Source: Perkinsus olseni (lineage: Eukaryota). Taken from it: a DNA stretch of 36,474 bases. Below, piece after piece: positions 168-36,474 of this stretch. The stretch covers positions 1 to 36,474 of the forward strand of contig JABANN010000349.1 in the NCBI GenBank assembly GCA_013115125.1, in the 5' to 3' direction. Position numbers and translations under genes: made by a program. The notes under the pieces are model-generated. The model was not told the DNA's origin, did not search any database, and worked only from the letters and a program-made list of their open reading frames with translations. The first letter of the stretch is position 1. Every line of letters starts with the position of its first letter.

Positions 168-964
168 ATGCACGTGATGTTCCTCAAGGACTTGACAGCA
201 GAAGGTCTCACAAGGAAGCAGTCTCGAACCTTCCTCTTCACCTTGCTCTACATCGAAGAGGACGATGATGAGGCCGAGATCAGCGTCTCTGGCGTGGGCA
301 GGCTGAGCGAGATTATCGCCCATATTAACGAAGGGAAAAGTTTGCAGTATTTTTCAGTGTTCGAGAATAAGAACGGCTTTCATTTCGTATTGAAGTACGA
401 GACTCCAACGAGGTGGAAGCAGCTTGCCGATACCCTCCGCAACAAGTACGGAATCTCCACCTCGGTCAGCTGTGCCATACCCAGGCCAGGGTACAGGACC
501 TGCATGTACCCCGTGTTGTTCTCCTACTGCCTCGACTTGGACCCCAACCCCTACCTATCCCCCAATCATCCCCACCCCAGCAGCCTCCTCGGAGACGGAG
601 AGAGGCAGGGCTCGAGGGCCAGACGGACTCCAGCTTTGGACGGGGGTGGTCTGCCGGCACTCCCACCTTCACGAGGCACTGAGGAGGAGGAGACGGGGAT
701 CTTGGAGCATGTCGACAGTGATGGAGTATCCGCTGTGAGCGCGGAGGAAGAGGTTCAGTCCCATTTTTCGGGAGAGTCGGCGGAGTCTCATGCCCTGTCC
801 TGACCTTCCCGTGGGGACAGGGACGCGTTGCGTGAGAGGCTTCAGCGATGTTATTACTCCCCTTATATGATAGACCATAAGGAGCAGGTGAGGCGGATAG
901 AGCCGTGCACCCGATGTTTCGCTGATTGGCTTTTCACTGCCACCTTAGCTCAGACCCAGCATGA

Positions 965-968
<4 letters not shown>
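168..968 (+). pseudogene. CRESS-Rep-like paralog 1: HUH-like N-terminal domain, helicase domain deleted, in-frame TGA at 801-803 before a conserved C-terminal tail
   Basis: ORF 168-803 aligns by eye with 2031-3359 (QSRTFLFTL/QSRSYIYSW, KYETPTRWKQLADTLRNKYGI/KYGTPTRWKQLSDTLRSRYGI, CMYPVLFSYCLDLDPNPYLSPNHP/CMYPMLFSHCLDLDPSPFLSPHHP). After TGA 801-803 the same frame continues DALRERLQRCYYSPYMIDHKEQVRRIEPCTRCFADWLFTATLAQTQHE* (stop 966-968), matching the C-terminus of paralog 2. It could be a pseudogene or a functional truncated gene. Confidence 0.75.

Positions 969-1015
<47 letters not shown>
965..1015. repeat. (ATG/TGA)n trinucleotide microsatellite, 17 ATG units
   Basis: Perfect ATG x17 at 965-1015, starting at the terminal stop codon of paralog 1. 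Confidence 0.97.
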
Positions 1016-1415
1016 TTTTAGATACCCTCTCTTTGTTTGGTTCCCATCAATCGCTCCTTCCATCCTCCTCTCAGGCTAGACCCGTCGTCCACACTGTTGG
1101 TCGTGCAGGATAGGTAAGACCCTCCAGCTGCCCCCTCTCCCCGGTCGTCTCGACTGGCGGACATCTCCTGACTGTGAAGGCAGCGGCAACATGTGCATGG
1201 CAATACAGTGCCTCTAGCTGCTCGCTCTGTGGTGTTAGTCAGTTGGGGAATAAGCCACGGGCATCGTTGCTCGTCTTTCTGATATCTCCGCTCGCAATAG
1301 CAGTGTAAGCACTAGAGCTCTCTACGTAACTAACGGTGCGGACGTCACATCGTACAACATAGAATATGGCATCAGCTGAACCAATATCCAGTCAGCAGGG
1401 TTTTCCATAACAAAA

Positions 1416-2026
1416 ATGCAACCTATGTCACTCTCATCATCGTTCGCCGAAGCCCCGACTTTGAAGAAGCCAGTGTCTTGCACGGGCGGCGATGGTAAGG
1501 GGGCTCAGCTGTAGAGGACTTCTCGATGCCAGGCCGCGAGATACCCGCTTGTACTTTTGTCGTCGCCCGGTTGTTTCTCTGACTTGTTACTTTAGGCTCT
1601 TTTCTCCACAGTAACTGTTGCAATTTCTACCGGCCTGCAGTCAGGTCTACCGCTTTCCTTCATCGATGAAGATACTATCGTGTATGCCGATGAGCCCGAG
1701 ATAGACGATCCGAACCTCAAGATAATGGCCCTGAAGCAGCGTGAGTCCGCCTCTTTCCGGTGTTCGAGAAGAGTTGGGCTTGATTAGGTATCGATGTGTT
1801 GGAGGAGGAGAAGAAGTGGTTGGAGTGGCGTAGCTGTGTTGCGTCATTCTGCGATGAGGACATCATGCTTCAGGCCTTCGGAAATGGCAGGACTGCCACA
1901 AATGCTCAAAATGCAAACATGAGAAGCAGGAGGAGAAGGAGGACGAAGCCGTCGTTGTTAAGAGTAAGTTATCTGTTCTCTTCTTGAGTATCACAGAAGC
2001 TACTGATATGGCTGTATAGGAGGACC
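1416..2026 (+). CDS. Putative upstream exons of the Rep-like gene (short coiled coil plus basic NLS-like segment)
   Basis: Phase-consistent GT-AG introns at 1741-1787, 1964-2019 and 2027-2067 give ...DDPNLKIMALKQ-RIDVLEEEKKWLEW...NMRSRRRRRTKPSLLR-ED-RSARIMEV..., joining the 2031-3359 frame. The first exon (ATG 1416, donor GTAAG 1495) is less certain. Confidence 0.5.
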
Positions 2027-2030
2027 GTGA

Positions 2031-3359
2031 ATGTACATAGCGTCGAATAGCTTCGTCTGCGCCTCAGGCTCAGCAAGGATTATGGAAGTTTCGAGCCATG
2101 GCAGCCGAATGACCAGACACCAGTCGAGAAGCTACATCTACTCTTGGATCCATTGCAATGACATGGACCTACCAGATGGCGTGCTTAAAAAGCGGCTCAG
2201 TAGGGTGCTCGCCCAGCTAAACGAGGCCAAGTCTTTGACGTTCTATTCGATATTCATCGGCCAGCAGCAGAAGGACGGCAGTCGACTTGTACACTCCCTG
2301 CTGAAGTATGGAACCCCGACTCGGTGGAAGCAGCTCTCGGACACCCTTCGTAGCAGATATGGGATAGACGCGTCGATCAGATGTGCTGTCCCGAGGCCAG
2401 GCTTCAAGAGCTGCATGTACCCCATGCTCTTCAGCCACTGCCTTGACCTCGACCCTAGCCCCTTCCTGTCCCCTCATCATCCTGACCCAGAGAGCCTCCT
2501 CGACGTCGAGAGGCAGTGCTCGAAGGGCAGGCAGACTCTTGCTTTGGAGGGGGGCGATCTCTCGATGCTGCCGATCAAACGGGACGCTGAAAGGAAGGAT
2601 GGAATTCCGGAGCATGCTGGTGAGGACAGAGCACTGGCCGTGAGTGTGCTGGGAGACAGCCGAGCTTTTATGGATGAGTCTGTGGACTGTATGGAAGAGG
2701 ACAACACGGACCCGATGTATGAAGTGGAAGCTTGCCTGGAGGCCGAGTGCATCTGTGAGAGTCCCGCCCTGTGGCTTGAGAGAATATCGTCCTTGGTTGT
2801 GCGGAATCTTGGAGAAGGGGGAGCGAAGAAATTGAGGAACGATATCCAGCGGAACCTGGATGAGGGACGCTCGAAGGAGACTAATGTTGTTATCTACGGT
2901 GTGGCCTCCAGTGGTAAGACCGCCATACTGCGGCCTCTCACTCACATCTTGAAGTGCGCTAAGATCTCCGATGCTGAGGAAATCTCCCATGAGGATTTAC
3001 TCGACTGTGAGTGCATCTTGTGGAGTCACTTCTCCGTGGAAGATTTGCACGACAACTTTGATATGACGAAGTTGCTCAAACTCCTCGACGACCGCCCGGT
3101 TGAGATGAGCTGCTCGAGCGACCTGGGAAATACTGGCTCTACTTTCGACAAGTTGGTGCCAATTTTCCTGACGTGTGATGCGCTCCCTGTCCCAAGGGAA
3201 GATCACTACAGGGAGGCCTTACATGAGAGGCTTCAGCGATGTTATTACTTCCCTCGTAAGATGGACCACGAGGAGCGGGTAAAGCCGTTCAGGCCTTGCA
3301 ATCGGTGCTTCGCTGATTGGCTCTTCGCGGATAGATTGGCTCGAACTCAGCATGAATAA
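2031..3359 (+). CDS. CRESS-DNA-virus Rep-like protein (degenerate HUH endonuclease domain + SF3-helicase-like domain), paralog 2; probably terminal exon 2068-3359 of a spliced gene
   Basis: 442-aa ORF. Walker A NVVIYGVASSGKT (GVASSGKT at 2898-2921), Walker-B position CILWSHF, motif-C position PIFLTCD and Arg-finger region EALHERLQR appear in SF3 order and spacing. The N-terminal part has RCR motif I/II/III-like positions (SYIYSW; QQKDGSRLVHSLLKY; FSHCLDLDP). Confidence 0.75.
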   Translation: MYIASNSFVCASGSARIMEVSSHGSRMTRHQSRSYIYSWIHCNDMDLPDGVLKKRLSRVLAQLNEAKSLTFYSIFIGQQQKDGSRLVHSLLKYGTPTRWKQLSDTLRSRYGIDASIRCAVPRPGFKSCMYPMLFSHCLDLDPSPFLSPHHPDPESLLDVERQCSKGRQTLALEGGDLSMLPIKRDAERKDGIPEHAGEDRALAVSVLGDSRAFMDESVDCMEEDNTDPMYEVEACLEAECICESPALWLERISSLVVRNLGEGGAKKLRNDIQRNLDEGRSKETNVVIYGVASSGKTAILRPLTHILKCAKISDAEEISHEDLLDCECILWSHFSVEDLHDNFDMTKLLKLLDDRPVEMSCSSDLGNTGSTFDKLVPIFLTCDALPVPREDHYREALHERLQRCYYFPRKMDHEERVKPFRPCNRCFADWLFADRLARTQHE

Positions 3360-4224
3360 TGACGTTTCACCTGTCTGCTGTTCGGTTCAAATCAATTTCT
3401 GCGGCAATTATTCTCTCACGCTTGCAGGAGGTGGTGGTGACATTGCTGCTAATCAGCCGTAGGTACGGAAGCCTATCATGACTGTTTCGGTGGCAGAGCG
3501 TCGTCTTTGAAACATGTTGTGTCAAGTAAAATACCATTCGCAGGCGCTTCAATCTGCTGCTTCTGTAGCGTTGTCCAGTTTGGAAGTGAGGGGCTCAATA
3601 TGAGAGCGGATCGTGATGACTTGGGCTTCTTCTCCACCAGACGGTTCCCTTCCGATATTTTCCGGGAGCTTCAATGTACATCAGTCTGTAACGAAAAGAT
3701 TCAACATGGAGAAATGAGGCCACTATGCCATGAGGCGCGAGAATCGCCGGTATCTCAGCCGTTCGCCGGAGAGCTGCGCCAGCCGAGCGGCTCGAATTTC
3801 TGCTGTAGGTCCTTAGTCAGGAGCTACAGCAGGAGTCCTGACACGTAGAAGCGCCGTGTTCCGACTTTGGGCCGTAAAGTCTCCGCAGTAAGGGAACGAC
3901 CCACTTGCTGACCCCGAGATTCTCGAGTTGAGACCATTGGCGCCCCACCTGGCATAGTGGAGGCTGCATTCTTGCATGCTGCATTATCTTGTCGCAGGCT
4001 GCTGTATGTCGGGCACATCGCCCGAGCCTACCGAACTTGGTCAAGCATTTTTTAGCGGGAAACCGTGGCTAATTGTATTATGTAACGCACCACATGGTTG
4101 TCTAAACCATTCTAGTAGTGTGGTGTCTCGCTCACTTTATAGAAGTTTAGTGCACCGCGGTGTTTTCCTCAACACTGACCCTTGAGTCCTGACGGCTCAG
4201 TTTCCTCAGTACTACTGGGCACAG

Positions 4225-4283
4225 CTTCGGCTGGAGGGCCCACTGAGTCAGTACCACTGACTCAGTAGGCCCTCCAGCCGAAG
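4225..4283. repeat. 59-nt inverted repeat (28-bp arms, 1 mismatch, 3-nt loop); candidate rolling-circle origin-like or ITR-like hairpin
   Basis: CTTCGGCTGGAGGGCCCACTGAGTCAGT-ACC-ACTGACTCAGTAGGCCCTCCAGCCGAAG. The palindrome is seen directly; its function is inferred. Confidence 0.9.
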
Positions 4284-4554
4284 GGCGCCTCCTGCCGCCA
4301 GGTCCCGCGGTGAATCTTCCGAAGATTATCTTCGACTGACGGTGAGGGCATCAACAGTACATGCATAAGAAGACAATGTCCCAGGGAGAAACATGACTTT
4401 GAACTAGGAACTGATCGATGGTTCGGCGTTGAGCTTCGCAGTATCCCACAGGAGATCGGTGGTTTTCAAATATAGGCCGAGTGCCGCCAGCGCCGAGTGA
4501 AACCATCATGCACTGTTCGCGACACGTAAAGCTGCTTTTGAGGCTTCTTCACAT

Positions 4555-4845
4555 ATGTCGAACTCGCCATCCCAGCCCATCCAGCCCGTCGACTCACCAA
4601 ACGCGAGTGCCGGTGAGCTGGCTGCGATTATAGACAACATTTCTCTCGAGTCGATCGCCGTTTGTATTTTGTCTCTCCCATCTGTTGGAAGGTCGCGCGC
4701 TGAAATAGTATCTCGGAGACGTGGCTACCTGGCGCCTCCTTTGCGTGCTGTAATCCCTCGTCTGGGGGATAGTCAACCGTTTCACGAAGCCGTCATGAAA
4801 TTTCCTGAGACAGTGGATCCAGCAGTCTTGAATATACTCGTCTAG
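4555..4845 (+). CDS. Hypothetical protein (96 aa)
   Basis: ATG-initiated ORF with protein-like composition; no motif recognised. Confidence 0.25.
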   Translation: MSNSPSQPIQPVDSPNASAGELAAIIDNISLESIAVCILSLPSVGRSRAEIVSRRRGYLAPPLRAVIPRLGDSQPFHEAVMKFPETVDPAVLNILV

Positions 4846-6654
4846 CAGCCTTCTTGTCCGGATGAGGCACTGCCAAGGACTCACTCAGTATGAGTGTTCT
4901 AGTACTCAAAATTGAAATCATAGAAACTCACTGAACGCCTACTACGTCAACTCTAGAAGAATGGCGGACTGGGTTGCTTGGCGGAGTAGCATCGACTGTG
5001 ATGTATTCGGTCGCATTCGCCCTAGGCTGCACTACCTGGGGAGTATTTCCACCGTGGTTAAGCGTTAGGATGGTGGGCAGAAGGAACCGCTGTGACTATG
5101 CCTTAACGACATCCATAGCAGTTTCATTCGACGAGTTTCCGTCGGAAACTTTCCGAGAGTAACCACGAGGCGGTCGCCGAGCACTATTCCTATGAGTCTT
5201 GAATAACTTTATACGGTGCTAAACTCTTTCCGTAACTTAACCAGGACTGAACTCTCCGCCATGATTGCCGTTTCTCTGCTCCAGATATCTTTCACGACTG
5301 CGTGGAGTCTAACCCCCGGCGCTGTTCTGGTGAGCATAGCTATCACTCCTGAGCATGCTTTTCAACACCTGTCACTTCCTGCAGTGTCTAGTACCGTCGC
5401 TTCTCTAGTCGAATTCAGGCGATGAGGACGCTGTCCTTCAGATGAAGTTAGCTTATTGGACGCAACAGTTCTCTATGGGGATGAAGAAGGAGACTCGGAT
5501 ACCGAGGAGAAAGTGAGACCGAAGGCCATGTACGCGCACTCCAAGCAGCCTCGCCATAGTTAGTTGTGTCAGTCCCGCGGCGTGAGTTCGAGGCCATGGA
5601 GGAACGTAAGGCGTCCTTCAACTTCTGTATCAATCATGAGTACTCCTTCTACTCGCAGGCATTCGCTTCCTGGAGTCGGAAAAGGCTGAACTGAAGCAGG
5701 GCGGCAAGCAACTCCGTTTTCACGGCTGGTCGCCATTCTGTCACTGGATAGGTGCATCTAGCCGCGTTGGCTTCTGTCCGCAATGTTCGCATCGAAATCT
5801 GCCGGCAGAAGCGGGCGAGAGCCGCGGAGAAGGTGAGGACCCTCTCCGGCCCGGGTGCGGTGTTTACTACCTTACAGAAGCTGTTGCTATCACTAAGGCG
5901 GATATTTCGGTGACCAAATATACGTTGAAAAATGAATGCAGCGATATCATCTGTCTGCCATACATGAAAATAGCCATTGAAACCTCAAGACAAAAGCACT
6001 CGGACACTTGCGTGACGTAAGTCACGTCGAAATACATATCCTATGCATCCAAGACACGAGAGGGTGTCGTCCTACTCTTTCCAACTTCCACGATGTACTG
6101 CTCGTAACTGGGGAGTGTTCGACTCGTTTTGGTGAGGACACAGAGGGAAGTGTTTCGTAAACTTGTGGGCCGGGCTTCCCTCATGTGTATTCCGGCATGT
6201 GGCTGCCGCTCGGGTCACGATCATTCTCTTGAGTCTCGCAAACTCAAATTCTTCGGCTTCGATCTCACTGGAATCGTTCTTAATCTTGCGAAAGACATTA
6301 AGACTTTGCGGCGACTCGCCGGGGCAACCGAGAGGAGAACTCAACGCATATACTACAGGAACACTTTCCCAGTTGGCATCAAGAGACCTGAGTCGAACAG
6401 CCCCCCTGGTTATTAGGATTACACCGTCGAAGTTGAATGCACAGTAGTGAGGCATAGTCCTTCATTGATGCAACACTCAGGACCCATAAGGCCACTGGTC
6501 GAGGCAGGAATCCGCCCTCGCATAAACGTGAAATCAAGTAGCACTGTCGAGTGTCGGCGGACCGGCATGCGAATTTGGTTCGACTTGTACTTCTGTACTT
6601 CTAGTAGCTGCCACCTGAGAAGCGTGACACAGCACTTCAATCATACGCGATATC

Positions 6655-7200
6655 GTGGGCAGTACATGCCTCTCAGACCGCATCCCGGCCGAAGAGCTAG
6701 CCACGAGCGGCACCAGGATTACTCCCTGGCCCGTTCGTGACGCTTGTTCGGCAACTGAGCTTCGGTTGGCCGACCGAGAAGCTCAGGCCAGAGTCTACGT
6801 GTGGGACTGGCCGGAGTCCTCTCACGGCCTATCTCCTCGTCATATCGGGAAGTCGGAACTGGGACGTTTGGTAACGGAGCTGAACGTTGGAAAGGGACTC
6901 GCCCAGTTTTCGATCTTTTACCGACGCTTGCCAAGCGGAGCGGTCAATGCTCGCTTCATTGTTAAGTATTGGGGCTCACGACGTTGGGTGAAGATGTCAC
7001 AAACGCTGAGGACGGTGTATGGTATTCATGCTAGTACTCTGCAGGGCTCTCGTGGTTCCCTCAACTACGACTCGCTTTTCAACGATTGCCTCCTCGGTGA
7101 CCCGGAGCCCCTCCTCTCCCCCAACCACCCGCCCGTCCCGTTGCCTGATTATATACCCACCATTAGTAGAATGACTGGCATTCTTCAACCTTCGTCGTGA
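6655..7200 (+). CDS. CRESS-Rep-like paralog 3: N-terminal domain only; likely terminal exon from 6677
   Basis: QARVYVWDW...LGRLVTELNVGKGLAQFSIF...IVKYWGSRRWVKMSQTLRTVYGI...YDSLFNDCLLGDPEPLLSPNHP aligns colinearly with paralogs 1 and 2. The ORF has no ATG before the domain; a CCTCTCAG acceptor ends at 6676. Confidence 0.75.
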   Translation: MGSTCLSDRIPAEELATSGTRITPWPVRDACSATELRLADREAQARVYVWDWPESSHGLSPRHIGKSELGRLVTELNVGKGLAQFSIFYRRLPSGAVNARFIVKYWGSRRWVKMSQTLRTVYGIHASTLQGSRGSLNYDSLFNDCLLGDPEPLLSPNHPPVPLPDYIPTISRMTGILQPSS

Positions 7201-7666
7201 TAACTATCCCCCGTGTTCCCTATGTCAGAGCGGCAGTTGCGTTACCCCAGCTGGCTGGGGTGCCGTACATCGATTAATTTTGAAGAAACTCATCGAACGG
7301 AGCCGCTCTGTGCATTATAGGGATTCCTCTGACTTATTTGCCACGGCCTGGTGCGTGCTACAAACGGCAGCCAGTTCGCGTGCTGTCCACCGCATGAGTG
7401 AGTGGACGGTTTATGCGACGTGTCATATGGTCCATAAGCGATGGACGATCTATCATAGACTCCATGGCAGCCAAGTTGGCTAAGTCAACAGGGTAATCCG
7501 AAGGTATTACAGCGCATCATGACACGATGGGTGAACTCGGATAAACAGGCTCAATACACGGTGGGTGTCTCCAAACGCGTTCTCTTTATTATGACGACTG
7601 CACTCGCGCCCATCGCTCAATTCTAGGCTGTTAGCAATCCATTGGAACCATTTCGTCACAACTCCA

Positions 7667-34199: not shown

Positions 34200-36474
34200 T
34201 TAGTAAGCGGGTTAGCGGGCAAACCCGTTGTGTTAATTTCCCGTTCAATGAAGTGATTCTGAAACTCGGAATCTAATCTTTGTCCAACTCGTGCGGTATT
34301 CGCGAATCACAAATACCGCGAAATCGATTCTTTTTCTGCTGAATGGAACCAGACTCATCGAGTGTAGCGCGTAGTGAAATCTCAGAAGATGAGAGGGAGG
34401 ATTGCGCACGCCACCACCAAGATTCCGACACAAAAGAACGGAGTGTGAAACGCTCAAGCGCTGTCTTGAAGTGAAGCGCTGACCTCTAGGCAGGTAGTGA
34501 CAGATAGTGAGTCACTTCCGCAGGGACGTGTATCGACGACCTAGCGTGCTCTGTAAAATTCGCAGTGTTGCAGTGGAATGCGGCTGGCCACCCAGCTGCA
34601 TTAGAACGTGATCACAGGATCGGGAGTACGTAAAATACAACAAGTCGTCTGGACAGCAGAACAGTACCAAATCTTCATGAGGGCAGCCGAACATAAAAAG
34701 GCAACAACACAGGGTGACTTGACTTCGAAAATATGACGCATTCGGGTGAAATCGTTAGCGCCCCACGTACAGAATAAGACTATCCAAACCACCCGGATGA
34801 TTCTCTTTCAATAGAGCTTGAACTCACAATGAGTCACTCATCGATTCTCTTGAGAAGGTCTTGAGAGTGCCCATCGTGAGCCAGTGGACGATATTAGGGA
34901 TGCAGTATGCCTTTGGATCACGTGATCTCCTTTTAACTTCTTGAAGCGTCTTCGGCCAGGTATCAATCGAGACGTTACTGCCAGGTGGCGAGATGTATTC
35001 ACTGTAAGCCTTCAGCTGCTCCCTAGATAGCTCCCATTTATGTTCTGAGGAAGAAATTGATGTGCTAGCTTGTAATCCGAAATATCCGCTTCTCTATCCT
35101 CGGTAAGAGCATCGCCGTATGAAAATTGTTCGTTCACATGTTGAGAGAATAATTTGCAATATCAAGAGCTCACTACACAAAGCTCTGTCTCCTCTGTGCT
35201 TTCATAGCTATTCATTCACCTCTCTTCCCTGTACTCTGTCCATCAGAGTTATTCTACTGTTGGGTTAACAGTGCAGCGTAGCAGCTCCTTGTTACAAGAA
35301 TGGGTGACAACAATGCCAACGAGCCTACTCTATATTATGCTCTGCCTGAGTGTTATGATCCAATTACTAGCATGCTTGACTTCGAACAGTGGGTTCGAAA
35401 GTATCAAGCCTGTGCTAAGGCGAATAAGTGGTCTGATGAGGATAAGCTTAGACACCTCCCTCCCCTACTTAAAGGAGACGCTTGGATCATCTATGATGAG
35501 CTTGATGAAGAAGAGAAGGATACGCTAGAGAAGCTGGTTGACAATCTGACTAAGAAGTTGACGGTGGCTACTCAAATACAGTGTGGAGAACAACTACATC
35601 AACGTGTTTTTGACTATGGTAACGAGACCTTACTGACATATCAGAATGATGTGAAACGTTTGGCACATCGAGCGTATCCAGACATGCAAGATGCCCAGCT
35701 CAAACCCATAGTCCTGATGGCATTCATACGTGGACTTCGTGGTCACTCTGTATCTCTTGCTCGTAAGGTGCGTAATGCAAACCCCAAGACATTTGATCAG
35801 GCATTGCAGAAGGCCCAGTTCATCATGTCGGACCCGTTTATCGATGAAGCTGAACGTTCAGATCAAGAAGCTTTACGCCATGAACTGATCGCCATCAATG
35901 ACATCGACCAGCTTAGGGCGCAAGCCCCTGGACAAGAAGAGTATCATCAAAGCCAAGAGCCTACGGTATCATCGCTAACATCGTCACCATCTGCATCTCT
36001 GCCCGACGCGTCGAGAGATTCGTCTTCGTCGTCACCGGAATGGGTGGATAAGATTGTGAACGCCATAAAGAAGATAGAGCAGAAATGTGACTACTGCGGT
36101 AAATGGGGTCACCTAGAGTCCGACTGCTTCAAGAAGAGGCGAGATAGGAAGGCACAAGCGACTGCGCGGGCATCATCTAATGGTGAATCTGGTCAGAGGT
36201 TCCGTCGAGAGTATCCACGAACAGTTGGTGCGACATGCGGTTATTGTTTGAAACGGAATCATACTGAAGAGCAGTGCCAAACAAAGCGTCGAGCACTAGA
36301 ATTAAAAGGTCATCCTGTATCTGATGATGCTATTATGAGACCGAATGAGGTCAATGCTGTTAGTCTGGAGACTTCCCAGGGTAATCGTATACCCCTACTT
36401 GTGTAGTGAATGTTGTTGATACCACTACAACTCAACTCACACAGAGTTGTTAAAGGCTTAACTTAACCCTTACT
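34200..36474 (+). mobile_element. 5' part of an LTR retrotransposon, cut by the window end; left boundary unresolved
   Basis: AT-richer non-coding stretch preceding gag; no second LTR copy in the window to define the boundaries. Confidence 0.5.
35300..36406 (+). CDS. gag: LTR-retrotransposon Gag (Ty3/Gypsy-like capsid + two CCHC zinc knuckles)
   Basis: Intronless 368-aa ORF. Capsid-like FEQWVRKY...KWSDEDKLRHLPPLLKGDAWIIYDEL, AFIRGL and PKTFDQAL; two C-X2-C-X4-H-X4-C knuckles, CDYCGKWGHLESDC and CGYCLKRNHTEEQC. Confidence 0.9.
   Translation: MGDNNANEPTLYYALPECYDPITSMLDFEQWVRKYQACAKANKWSDEDKLRHLPPLLKGDAWIIYDELDEEEKDTLEKLVDNLTKKLTVATQIQCGEQLHQRVFDYGNETLLTYQNDVKRLAHRAYPDMQDAQLKPIVLMAFIRGLRGHSVSLARKVRNANPKTFDQALQKAQFIMSDPFIDEAERSDQEALRHELIAINDIDQLRAQAPGQEEYHQSQEPTVSSLTSSPSASLPDASRDSSSSSPEWVDKIVNAIKKIEQKCDYCGKWGHLESDCFKKRRDRKAQATARASSNGESGQRFRREYPRTVGATCGYCLKRNHTEEQCQTKRRALELKGHPVSDDAIMRPNEVNAVSLETSQGNRIPLLV

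Follow-up and report, generated by a model that had tools for sequence, protein, structure and literature searches.

A probably exapted, non-catalytic family of Rep-derived genes in the protist Perkinsus olseni

Introduction

What use does a cell have for a replication initiator whose catalytic residues have been replaced? The question is raised by a contig of Perkinsus olseni (JABANN010000349.1 of assembly GCA_013115125.1), which was analysed over positions 1 to 36,474 of the forward strand; this whole stretch of 36,474 nucleotides (nt) is referred to below as the window. Within its first 7,200 nt lie three related genes on the same strand, here called copies 1, 2 and 3 in 5' to 3' order. A first-pass annotation, made from the DNA letters alone, had described them as a tandem family derived from the Rep gene of viruses whose circular single-stranded DNA genomes encode Rep (CRESS-DNA viruses), and as a candidate domesticated replication-initiator system. 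We report that the three copies do carry a Rep-type domain, that the residues on which Rep catalysis depends are substituted in them, and that reading frames and predicted fold nevertheless appear to have been maintained. On balance we consider it probable that the window copies belong to an exapted, non-catalytic, Rep-derived gene family.

Results

The three copies share a domain of about 120 amino acids (aa) in which the four motif strings listed by the first-pass annotation are colinear throughout, among them QSRTFL, QSRSYI and QARVYV in copies 1, 2 and 3 and the string KY-x4-RW-x5-TLR-x2-YGI. Identity to copy 1 is 48% for copy 2 and 36% for copy 3, and 41 columns are invariant in the three-way alignment. 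When the annotated copy 2 protein is compared with the window by tblastn, copy 1 is found at an expectation value (E) of 4.6e-52 and copy 3 at E 8e-16, a resemblance evidently well beyond chance; no fourth copy is found by the same search over the whole window. The list of open reading frames (ORFs) and the alignment thus bear out the three same-strand paralogs, and a P-loop (Walker A, GVASSGKT, of the form GxxxxGK[ST]) is present, as had been noted, in the middle copy only. One correction is needed. The stretch 168-968, taken at first as a single ORF, contains a stop codon at 801-803, and the ORF of copy 1 ends at 803.

Structure prediction identifies the domains. The AlphaFold2 (AF2) model of copy 2 has a predicted local distance difference test score (pLDDT) of 80.8, with two confident domains at residues 30-166 and 224-442 joined by a linker that is disordered (pLDDT below 50). 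Searched with Foldseek, this model retrieves Rep68 of adeno-associated virus 2 (AAV2) first, across both domains (E 8e-10), followed by E1 (E 7e-8) and Rep40. In VIA-align searches of 48,161 chains, the helicase of copy 2 (residues 216-441) matches AAV2 Rep40 at Z 16.8, E1 at 15.9 and parvovirus B19 NS1 at 13.6, as against Z 8.6 for the Rep ATPase of porcine circovirus 2 (PCV2). The N-domain (residues 31-149) is closest to the Vientovirus Rep endonuclease (Z 10.8, root-mean-square deviation 2.7, 105 residues aligned of a 113-residue chain), with further matches to the Rep of tomato yellow leaf curl virus (TYLCV; Z 9.2), RepB (8.7) and nanovirus M-Rep (8.1). For copy 3, whose model has a pLDDT of 79 with a core above 90, all ten matches at Z of at least 8 are Rep or RepB endonuclease domains (top Z 11.4); next come the origin-binding domains of simian virus 40 (SV40) large T and E1 (Z 7.0-7.7), the Helitron transposase (Z 6.6) and parvoviral nuclease domains (Z 6.1-6.5). 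The fold of copy 1 was assigned through its 48% identity to the modelled copy 2. The models therefore identify the shared domain as a predicted histidine-hydrophobic-histidine (HUH) Rep endonuclease fold, with the beta-alpha-beta-beta-alpha-beta core of this class, and the P-loop domain of copy 2 as a predicted superfamily 3 (SF3) helicase preceded by a helical oligomerisation region. The order of HUH endonuclease and SF3 helicase proposed in the first-pass annotation is in this way confirmed by Foldseek and VIA-align on the models of copies 2 and 3.

Comparisons beyond experimental structures gave related results. Foldseek ranks NS proteins of parvoviruses and Rep proteins of Cressdnaviricota highest among predicted viral structures (E about 1e-12 to 1e-10), and the nearest language-model neighbours are a cluster named 'Replication-associated protein' together with NS1 clusters. 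A family profile of 42 rows run against the sequences of the PDB finds AAV Rep40 (E 9e-9), B19 NS1 (2e-7) and E1 (3e-6) and, weakly, three Rep nuclease domains (E 0.017-0.084); a profile made from Perkinsus sequences only has no match there at E<=10. The expectation that the Pfam families Gemini_AL1, Viral_Rep or Parvo_NS1 would recognise the genes did not hold: no window copy reaches a gathering cutoff, the best relevant match being PPV_E1_C on copy 2 (E 0.012, 15.2 bits against a cutoff of 26.5). The Perkinsus marinus homolog P0005 has sub-threshold matches to Gemini_AL1 (E 0.022, 15.2 bits against 24), PPV_E1_C (0.0022) and DUF5906 (0.013), and none of Gemini_AL1, Viral_Rep, REP_ORF2-G2P and Parvo_NS1 is found at its gathering cutoff on the Perkinsus members. 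Twenty relatives searched in the same way gave sub-threshold matches to REP_ORF2-G2P in five and to Gemini_AL1 in two, and matches to Parvo_NS1 in five, of which two pass the cutoff of 20 bits (P0018 at 25.1 bits, P0020 at 21.2). A scan of PHROGs with three family proteins returned no family, and P0005 has no tblastn match among phage records. The hallmark of the family is a quartet of cysteines (C240, C242, C423 and C426 in copy 2), each of them conserved in 39-42 of 42 rows.

Catalytic residues were compared in an alignment of 48 rows comprising 16 Perkinsus-type sequences and 32 relatives from outside this group. In the outside relatives the first and second HUH histidines (His1, His2) and the motif III tyrosine are each present in 32 of 32, and the Walker B column holds Asp in 27, Glu in two, Asn in one and a gap in two. 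The Perkinsus-type rows differ sharply, with His1 kept in two of 16 (P0005 and P0009), His2 in nine and the tyrosine in seven. Copy 1 has Gly and His at the two histidine positions, keeps the motif III tyrosine and has no helicase. Copy 2 carries L86 in place of His1 next to a retained H88, H136 in place of the tyrosine, an intact GKT in Walker A, and H333 (ILWSHF) where Walker B has its Asp. Copy 3 has Asn and Arg for the histidines, Asp for the tyrosine and, like copy 1, no helicase. Motif I (hydrophobic-hydrophobic-Thr-hydrophobic), with the family consensus VYLITY, reads TFLFTL in copy 1 (Thr kept), SYIYSW in copy 2 (Ser) and VYVWDW in copy 3 (Asp), and copies 2 and 3 have also lost an upstream E-x-H motif that most outside rows conserve. 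P0005 keeps HUH, tyrosine, E-x-H and Walker B Asp; P0009 keeps HUH and tyrosine, its sequence ending inside Walker A, before Walker B.

With HUH histidines, catalytic tyrosine and Walker B Asp replaced in the window copies, the description of the locus as an enzymatic replication-initiator system has to be given up. Judging from these residues, Rep-type nicking would not be expected of any of the window copies. ATP binding by copy 2 is possible; normal ATP hydrolysis by it seems unlikely, because Walker B is needed for normal ATP hydrolysis in AAA+ and SF3 enzymes.

The history of these losses can be followed on a maximum-likelihood tree of the N-domain from the same 48 rows. All 16 Perkinsus-type rows form one clade (support 100/100) on a long stem. 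It divides into three starred or well-supported groups, namely subclade A (P0017, P0012 and the first unit of P0010), subclade B (copy 3, P0006, P0007, the second unit of P0010 and P0085) and subclade C, which holds the full-length type and in which P0009 and P0005 branch first. Nested in C is a subclade of six rows (support 99/96) that unites copy 2 with P0004, copy 1 with P0008, and P0002 with P0003; His1 is absent from all six, and the Walker B Asp is absent from all four that bear a helicase. The branches of the copy 3 subclade are 0.6-1.0 changes per site long, and Arg at the His2 position is common to its members. Read most simply, this topology would reflect one capture event, after which the family divided early into subfamilies; in C, catalysis would have been lost ahead of the divergence of copies 1 and 2.

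Copy 3 is indeed the most distant paralog, as had been supposed. The accompanying proposal, that a captured rep gene was duplicated locally, proves too simple: copies 1 and 2 belong to one old subfamily and copy 3 to another, and P0003, a full-length protein with an N-domain close to that of copy 1, is encoded on another contig of the same assembly. Because its subclade is old, copy 3 is evidently not a recent local duplicate of copy 2. The two-unit layout of the window recurs in P0010, in which a different N-domain unit is followed by a unit of copy 3 type.

We estimated the ratio of nonsynonymous to synonymous divergence (dN/dS) by the Nei-Gojobori method (NG86); pairs with copy 3, in which dS is saturated at 3.1 or undefined, were set aside. 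Between copies 1 and 2 the ratio is 0.30 over the whole alignment. It is 0.25 in the N-domain (bootstrap 2.5-97.5% range 0.13-0.46, dS 1.37, 131 codons), 0.42 in the linker (0.16-0.84, dS 1.13, 53 codons) and 0.24 in the C-terminal tail that lies past the stop of copy 1 (0.08-0.57, dS 0.81, 49 codons). The N-domain value is well below one, as selection would have it, and since both copies fall inside the subclade that lacks His1, most of this constraint would have acted on a protein that was already HUH-defective. Conservation is likewise uneven between copy 2 and P0002 or P0003, with identities of 77-79% in the helicase, 54-55% in the N-domain and about 40% in the linker; the helicase is the best conserved part although copy 2, P0002 and P0003 all have His in Walker B.

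Evidence of expression comes from X1, one public run kept as contigs and presumed to be RNA (share 0.16). One of its contigs joins position 1493 to 1644 and 1740 to 1788, so that two GT..AG introns of the copy 2 gene are removed, and three others match the copy 2 ORF without a difference over 2121-2402, 2460-2879 and 3110-3279. It is difficult to account for such intron-less contigs unless the copy 2 gene is transcribed. The spliced contigs agree with the expectation of expression for copy 2; X1 has no coverage over copy 3, which speaks neither for nor against expression of that gene.

These introns are part of a gene structure larger than the ORFs. The large ORFs are last exons only, and the annotated proteins carry additional 5' exons: copy 2 is 99% identical to the P. 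olseni hypothetical protein P0001 (532 aa), and copy 3 is 97% identical to the product of a neighbouring annotated gene, P0007 (235 aa). By tblastn, residues 5-86 of P0007 align with 5661-5942 of the window and residues 404-444 of P0010 with 5284-5328 and 5438-5518. The added exons encode an N-terminal module made of an acidic 'D-T-I/V-x-Y' stretch, a coiled-coil (ALKxRIxxLEEEKxW) and a CxxCxxCxC/H knuckle. This module precedes the Rep domain in most Perkinsus-type members (P0001, P0008, P0010, P0011 and P0012), occurs twice in P0010, and was not seen in the distant relatives. In a further protein, P0006 (355 aa, from another P. olseni isolate), the start of the copy 2 gene, up to 'KKRL' in the N-domain, is fused with the copy 3 exons; either the gene model was joined wrongly or a genuine deletion or splice form leaves out the body of copy 2.

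The family is narrow in its named records and wide in its distant relatives. A word-based search of 5.8 billion proteins returned six clusters at E<=1e-3, four of P. olseni and one of P. marinus among them; named records of the family appear to come from Perkinsus only (P. olseni and P. marinus), and by its sequences the family is of low copy number and diverged, not a recently amplified repeat. A further word-based search, made with the family alignment, gave seven proteins and added no named organism. A family profile of seven rows run with HMMER finds 357 proteins at E<=1e-3, 123 at E<=1e-10 and nine at E<=1e-30. Many of the distant matches are 440-600 aa long, align over both domains and have textbook rolling-circle motifs (VYLITYS, HxH, Y..K or similar) together with SF3-type Walker A and B motifs.

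Copy 1 has a history of its own. Its ORF is followed in the same frame by bases 804-968, whose translation of 54 residues shows homology to the C-terminal ~50 residues of copy 2, and at the DNA level 817-971 repeats 3208-3362 at 77% identity. Because the tail after the stop matches the C-terminus of copy 2, copy 1 is evidently an internal-deletion derivative, that is, a once full-length copy from which ~215 codons (the oligomerisation region and the helicase core) were deleted in frame, with a stop at the junction. Constraint on the tail suggests a deletion that is recent compared with the split of copies 1 and 2. Similarity to P0008 starts 5' of the copy 1 ORF, residues 104-330 of that protein matching 123-800 of the window at 87% (tblastn); the part of P0008 that lies further 5' has no match in the window, and a further 5' part of copy 1 may lie beyond the window start. 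Since the oligomerisation region is deleted, copy 1 would not form mixed rings with copy 2, and any interference by it would therefore act only through competition for DNA.

A 603-nt contig of run X1 lies over 384-821 and represents a close relative of copy 1 that differs at 10 places and has GAG inserted in frame; four of the six differences listed are synonymous. Its first 162 nt are unlike the window and resemble an N-domain of the P0002/P0003/P0011 type, so that the contig may derive from a mosaic paralog or allele, and gene conversion may have taken place in the family. Immediately after the copy 1 tail (~968-1020) there is a trinucleotide run that reads as poly-Asp, poly-Met or stops, depending on the frame.

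The setting of intact relatives bears on where the captured gene came from. Nine intact relatives supplied the pattern for a scan that covers only their subgroup; in 2.9 million viral contigs it gave 18 matches and no confirmed relative among them. Metagenome contigs hold 69 loci with intact relatives (L001-L069). In 33 of the 69 the Rep-helicase gene is adjoined by a gene of ~360 aa for a Tc1/mariner-type DDE transposase (tblastn), which lies on the strand opposite the Rep-helicase in the loci with ORFs listed; many of the remaining loci are too short for both genes. All six transposases tested in Pfam contain DDE_3 and HTH_Tnp_Tc3_2 and are thus of Tc1/mariner/IS630 type. The loci contain 155 ORFs of at least 100 aa, 71 of them Rep, 34 transposase and 50 other. 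Twenty-two of these 50 overlap neither Rep nor transposase, one pair of which, from two loci with the same element, is related, and no recurrent third gene or capsid candidate is found among the 155 ORFs.

Four of the first 40 loci examined (L002, L003, L006 and L021) have identical sequences of 99-123 nt at both contig ends. The identical ends fall inside a gene in L002, L003 and L021, and the units of 3.7-4.5 kb are for this reason read as circular or tandem. Inverted repeats of 16-21 nt lie near both ends of L012 and L033, and L006 has a palindrome with 27-bp arms at its junction. From these arrangements, the nearest intact relatives with an available genomic context appear to be transposon-like or plasmid-like elements, not capsid-encoding viruses. 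We found no description of elements that combine a Rep-SF3 helicase with Tc1/mariner transposases in the literature searched. In one Rep and transposase locus, L008, a further ORF of 444 aa encodes two domains of the cytidine/deoxycytidylate deaminase kind (dCMP_cyt_deam_1, E 1.5e-20).

The window itself was searched for the same features. No capsid-like gene is found in it and no origin-like stem-loop near the copies. A candidate DDE transposase was rejected (best tblastn E 0.027), as were candidate terminal repeats around the copies; the inverted pairs 107-131/8318-8342 and 1133-1155/8172-8194 are 76-83% complementary and look like chance. A viral source, as the first-pass annotation had it, therefore finds no capsid gene or origin element to lean on, and 33 of the 69 related loci carry a DDE transposase instead.

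Two further features of the window were recorded. Between copy 2 and the probable 5' exons of copy 3 there is a near-perfect hairpin with 28-nt arms (96% complementary) and a 3-nt loop; the loop is too short for a typical Rep origin. Towards the end of the window, an ORF of 368 aa contains two zinc knuckles of CCHC type (CxxCxxxxHxxxxC), like those of retrotransposon Gag, and has no Pfam match at E<=0.01; it suggests other mobile DNA on the contig. Coordinates are collected in Table 1.

Table 1. Positions of features in the window and in three metagenome loci that carry intact relatives
Sequence	Feature	Positions	Strand	Remarks
Window	Copy 1 ORF	168-803	+	211 aa; stop at 801-803
Window	Copy 1 predicted Rep N-domain	~213-590		then acidic low-complexity linker; no helicase
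Window	Copy 1 tail remnant	804-968	+	same frame, 3' of stop; includes CxxCF motif
Window	Copy 2 5' exons (P0001)	1416-1989	+	coiled-coil and CxxCxxCxH module
Window	Copy 2 gene introns	1494-1643 and 1741-1787		GT..AG; removed in contig of run X1
Window	Copy 2 main exon	2031-3359	+	ORF of 442 aa, full length; annotated exon start near 2055
Window	Copy 2 predicted HUH-fold domain	2118-2528		residues 30-166
Window	Copy 2 disordered linker	2529-2699
Window	Copy 2 predicted oligomerisation region and SF3 helicase	2700-3356		residues 224-442
Window	Hairpin	4225-4283
Window	Probable copy 3 5' exons	~5284-5942	+	tblastn with P0007 and second unit of P0010
Window	Copy 3 main exon	6655-7200	+	181 aa; N-domain only, no helicase
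Window	Copy 3 predicted HUH fold	6772-7149		residues about 40-165
Window	Gag-like ORF	35300-36406	+	368 aa
L002	Rep-helicase	63-1235	+
L002	Transposase	2360-3460	-
L006	Rep-helicase	485-1960	+
L006	Transposase	2393-3472	-
L008	ORF with two deaminase domains	245-1576	+	444 aa

Discussion

The reading that we favour has several steps. In the best reading of the data, the family goes back to a single captured Rep-helicase gene, whose source was a small mobile element. In P. olseni it then turned into ordinary host genes, as the spliceosomal introns, the added N-terminal module and the small number of diverged members indicate, and the fold and the reading frames would have been kept under purifying selection after the catalytic losses. 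Two forms persist, one full-length (copy 2) and one reduced to the N-domain (copies 1 and 3).

As to function, the origin-binding domains of papillomavirus E1 and polyomavirus large T are themselves inactivated HUH derivatives. By analogy with these proteins, the dead HUH domain of the window copies may serve as a sequence-specific DNA-binding module, which the coiled-coil would dimerise, and to which copy 2 would add an ATP-binding, ring-type ATPase with poor hydrolysis or none. Its targets could be host DNA, in a regulatory role, or the origins or ends of related active elements, in which case the proteins would be repressors or decoys. The first-pass annotation had preferred selection for a host function over a viral fossil. 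That preference gains from dN/dS below one and from the spliced contigs of copy 2; the DNA-binding or decoy role which it named is, as here, a prediction.

Several points weigh against this account. The DNA-binding role is a prediction drawn from analogy. The input alignments of the AF2 models are rich in intact relatives and so favour the family fold. Constraint after inactivation presupposes that His1 was lost once, where the subclade begins, and with dS above one the dN/dS values are imprecise. The internal deletion and in-frame stop of copy 1 resemble decay, and the interdomain linker is degenerate in comparison with P0005. Run X1 is only presumed to be RNA and covers nothing over 3459-7400, which makes it uninformative for copy 3. 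Retention across species, finally, is read from protein similarity alone (P0010, P0085).

The alternative that fares best concerns the origin only. It takes the source to be a CRESS-DNA or parvo-like virus with a capsid gene, not an element with Rep and transposase; we regard this as doubtful but a serious contender. The N-domain is structurally nearest to CRESS-DNA virus Reps and the helicase to parvoviral Rep/NS1 and E1; NS of parvoviruses and Rep of Cressdnaviricota head the Foldseek matches to predicted viral proteins, the language-model neighbours include NS1 clusters, and the transposase loci represent just one subgroup of the wider family, the one from which the pattern was made. On the other hand, the DDE transposase is the sole recurrent partner in the 69 loci, none of the 155 ORFs recurs as a third, the viral contigs yielded pattern matches without a confirmed relative, and no Perkinsus member reaches the Pfam cutoffs for viral Reps.

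Less probable, to our minds, is that the copies are neutral remnants, decaying relics whose frames are open through incomplete decay and whose low dN/dS dates from a mobile phase. Such relics could well look like copy 1, with its deletion of ~215 codons and its stop, and could have lost catalytic residues in all three copies; a low-complexity linker with pLDDT below 50, the gag-like ORF on the same contig and the lack of a listed RNA record for copy 3 would fit equally. Several observations are harder to reconcile with neutral decay. Copies 1 and 2 descend from a node all six of whose descendants lack His1, yet dN/dS is 0.25 (upper bound 0.46) over a dS of about 1.4, and ORFs of 442 and 181 aa have stayed open at synonymous saturation. 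Members of the copy 3 clade, on branches of 0.6-1.0 changes per site, have Arg in common at the His2 position, yet copy 3 still has an intact modelled fold, the helicase is the best conserved part despite its altered Walker B, and the copy 2 gene has spliced contigs.

A more specific proposal, which we hold to be somewhat less likely again, is that nuclease-dead full-length members and N-domain-only members, as DNA-binding proteins fused to the coiled-coil and Cys module, jointly repress or decoy active relatives and so amount to a home-grown defence against rolling-circle elements, the source being undescribed hybrid Tc1/mariner and Rep-SF3 elements able to form circles of 3.7-4.5 kb. Weakest of all, and very improbable, is a still-active initiator or transposase that nicks or unwinds with non-canonical residues so as to replicate or move an element, for although copy 2 is complete in architecture, with Walker A and the Cys quartet, copy 1 retains the tyrosine and one His, and P0005 and P0009 keep HUH and tyrosine (P0005 the Walker B Asp as well), so that the genus may hold active members, copy 2 lacks His1, tyrosine and Walker B Asp, copy 3 both histidines and the tyrosine, and copy 1 the helicase, the window offers no DDE transposase (best E 0.027), capsid-like gene or terminal repeats round the copies, and the family is few and diverged with no near-identical burst.

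The exapted, non-catalytic family that we favour can be set against several known systems. It shares with CRESS-DNA virus Reps (the redondovirus Vientovirus, geminivirus) the order of single-tyrosine HUH fold, oligomerisation region and SF3 helicase, and these Reps give the best superpositions of the N-domains of copies 2 and 3 (Z 10.8-11.4 for the former Rep and 9.2-10.6 for the latter). Unlike them, the window copies have no complete HUH motif, the tyrosine is gone in copies 2 and 3 and the Walker B Asp in copy 2, and capsid gene, circular genome and origin stem-loop are lacking. The copy 2 helicase is moreover larger, and nearer to parvoviral Rep and E1 (Z 16-17) than to PCV2 Rep (Z 8.6). 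Among parvovirus NS1 and the AAV Rep68 and Rep40 proteins, Rep68 is the best overall structural match of copy 2, and papillomavirus E1 offers both a close helicase (Z 15.9) and, in its inactivated origin-binding domain, the functional analogy proposed here. Parvoviral nuclease domains match the N-domain less well (Z 6.1-6.5 with the copy 3 model), and in contrast to NS1 and E1 the Perkinsus family has its own Cys quartet, host-type introns and a coiled-coil and Cys module.

Precedents exist in eukaryotic genomes. According to Liu et al. (2011; PMC3198968), such genomes hold fixed Rep-like genes, some of them conserved and expressed, and the truffle Tuber melanosporum has a geminivirus-like transposon with a Rep-like ORF, transposase ORFs and 37-bp terminal inverted repeats. 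As far as that text describes the endogenous genes, the Perkinsus family differs from them in its three old subfamilies, its catalytic losses and its N-domain-only members. The Tuber transposon sets a precedent for Rep and transposase within inverted repeats, an arrangement repeated in the intact relatives described above. It has another Rep lineage and a fungal host, while the relatives reported here combine Rep-SF3 with a Tc1/mariner DDE transposase and are sometimes circular or tandem, and the window itself has no transposase. Helitrons (a two-tyrosine Rep fused to a superfamily 1B (SF1B) helicase) and Replitrons (no fused helicase), in the description given in the main text of PMC10288648, are likewise eukaryotic mobile elements that encode a Rep-class HUH endonuclease; the Perkinsus family, unlike both, has a single tyrosine position and an SF3 helicase.

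The main texts of PMC3198968 and PMC10288648 do not mention 'Perkinsus', though the supplementary list of Rep-like sequences in the former could include it. In the text of PMC9651163 consulted, the one mention of Perkinsus concerns RNA-virus-like genes, and none on Rep genes was seen. We found no literature linking Perkinsus with Cressdnaviricota, and no description of a Rep-derived family of Perkinsus in the literature searched, whose supplementary tables might list Perkinsus sequences. Endogenous Rep-like genes and Rep-carrying transposons as such were already known (PMC3198968, main text). New here is an expanded, catalytically dead and apparently constrained Rep-derived family with an added N-terminal module, alongside residue-keeping members in the same genus.

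Perkinsus is a major parasite of molluscs and a close relative of the dinoflagellates, and its mobile elements are little known. The host functions of eukaryotic endogenous Rep genes are largely unresolved, and Perkinsus offers a favourable setting for the question: within one genus some members still have the catalytic residues and others do not, so that the losses can be mapped on the tree. The dead copies combine apparent constraint, host introns and a dimerisation-like module, which makes the cell's use of a dead Rep directly testable. The elements that pair Rep-SF3 with Tc1/mariner transposases would, if real, form a link between rolling-circle replicons and cut-and-paste transposons.

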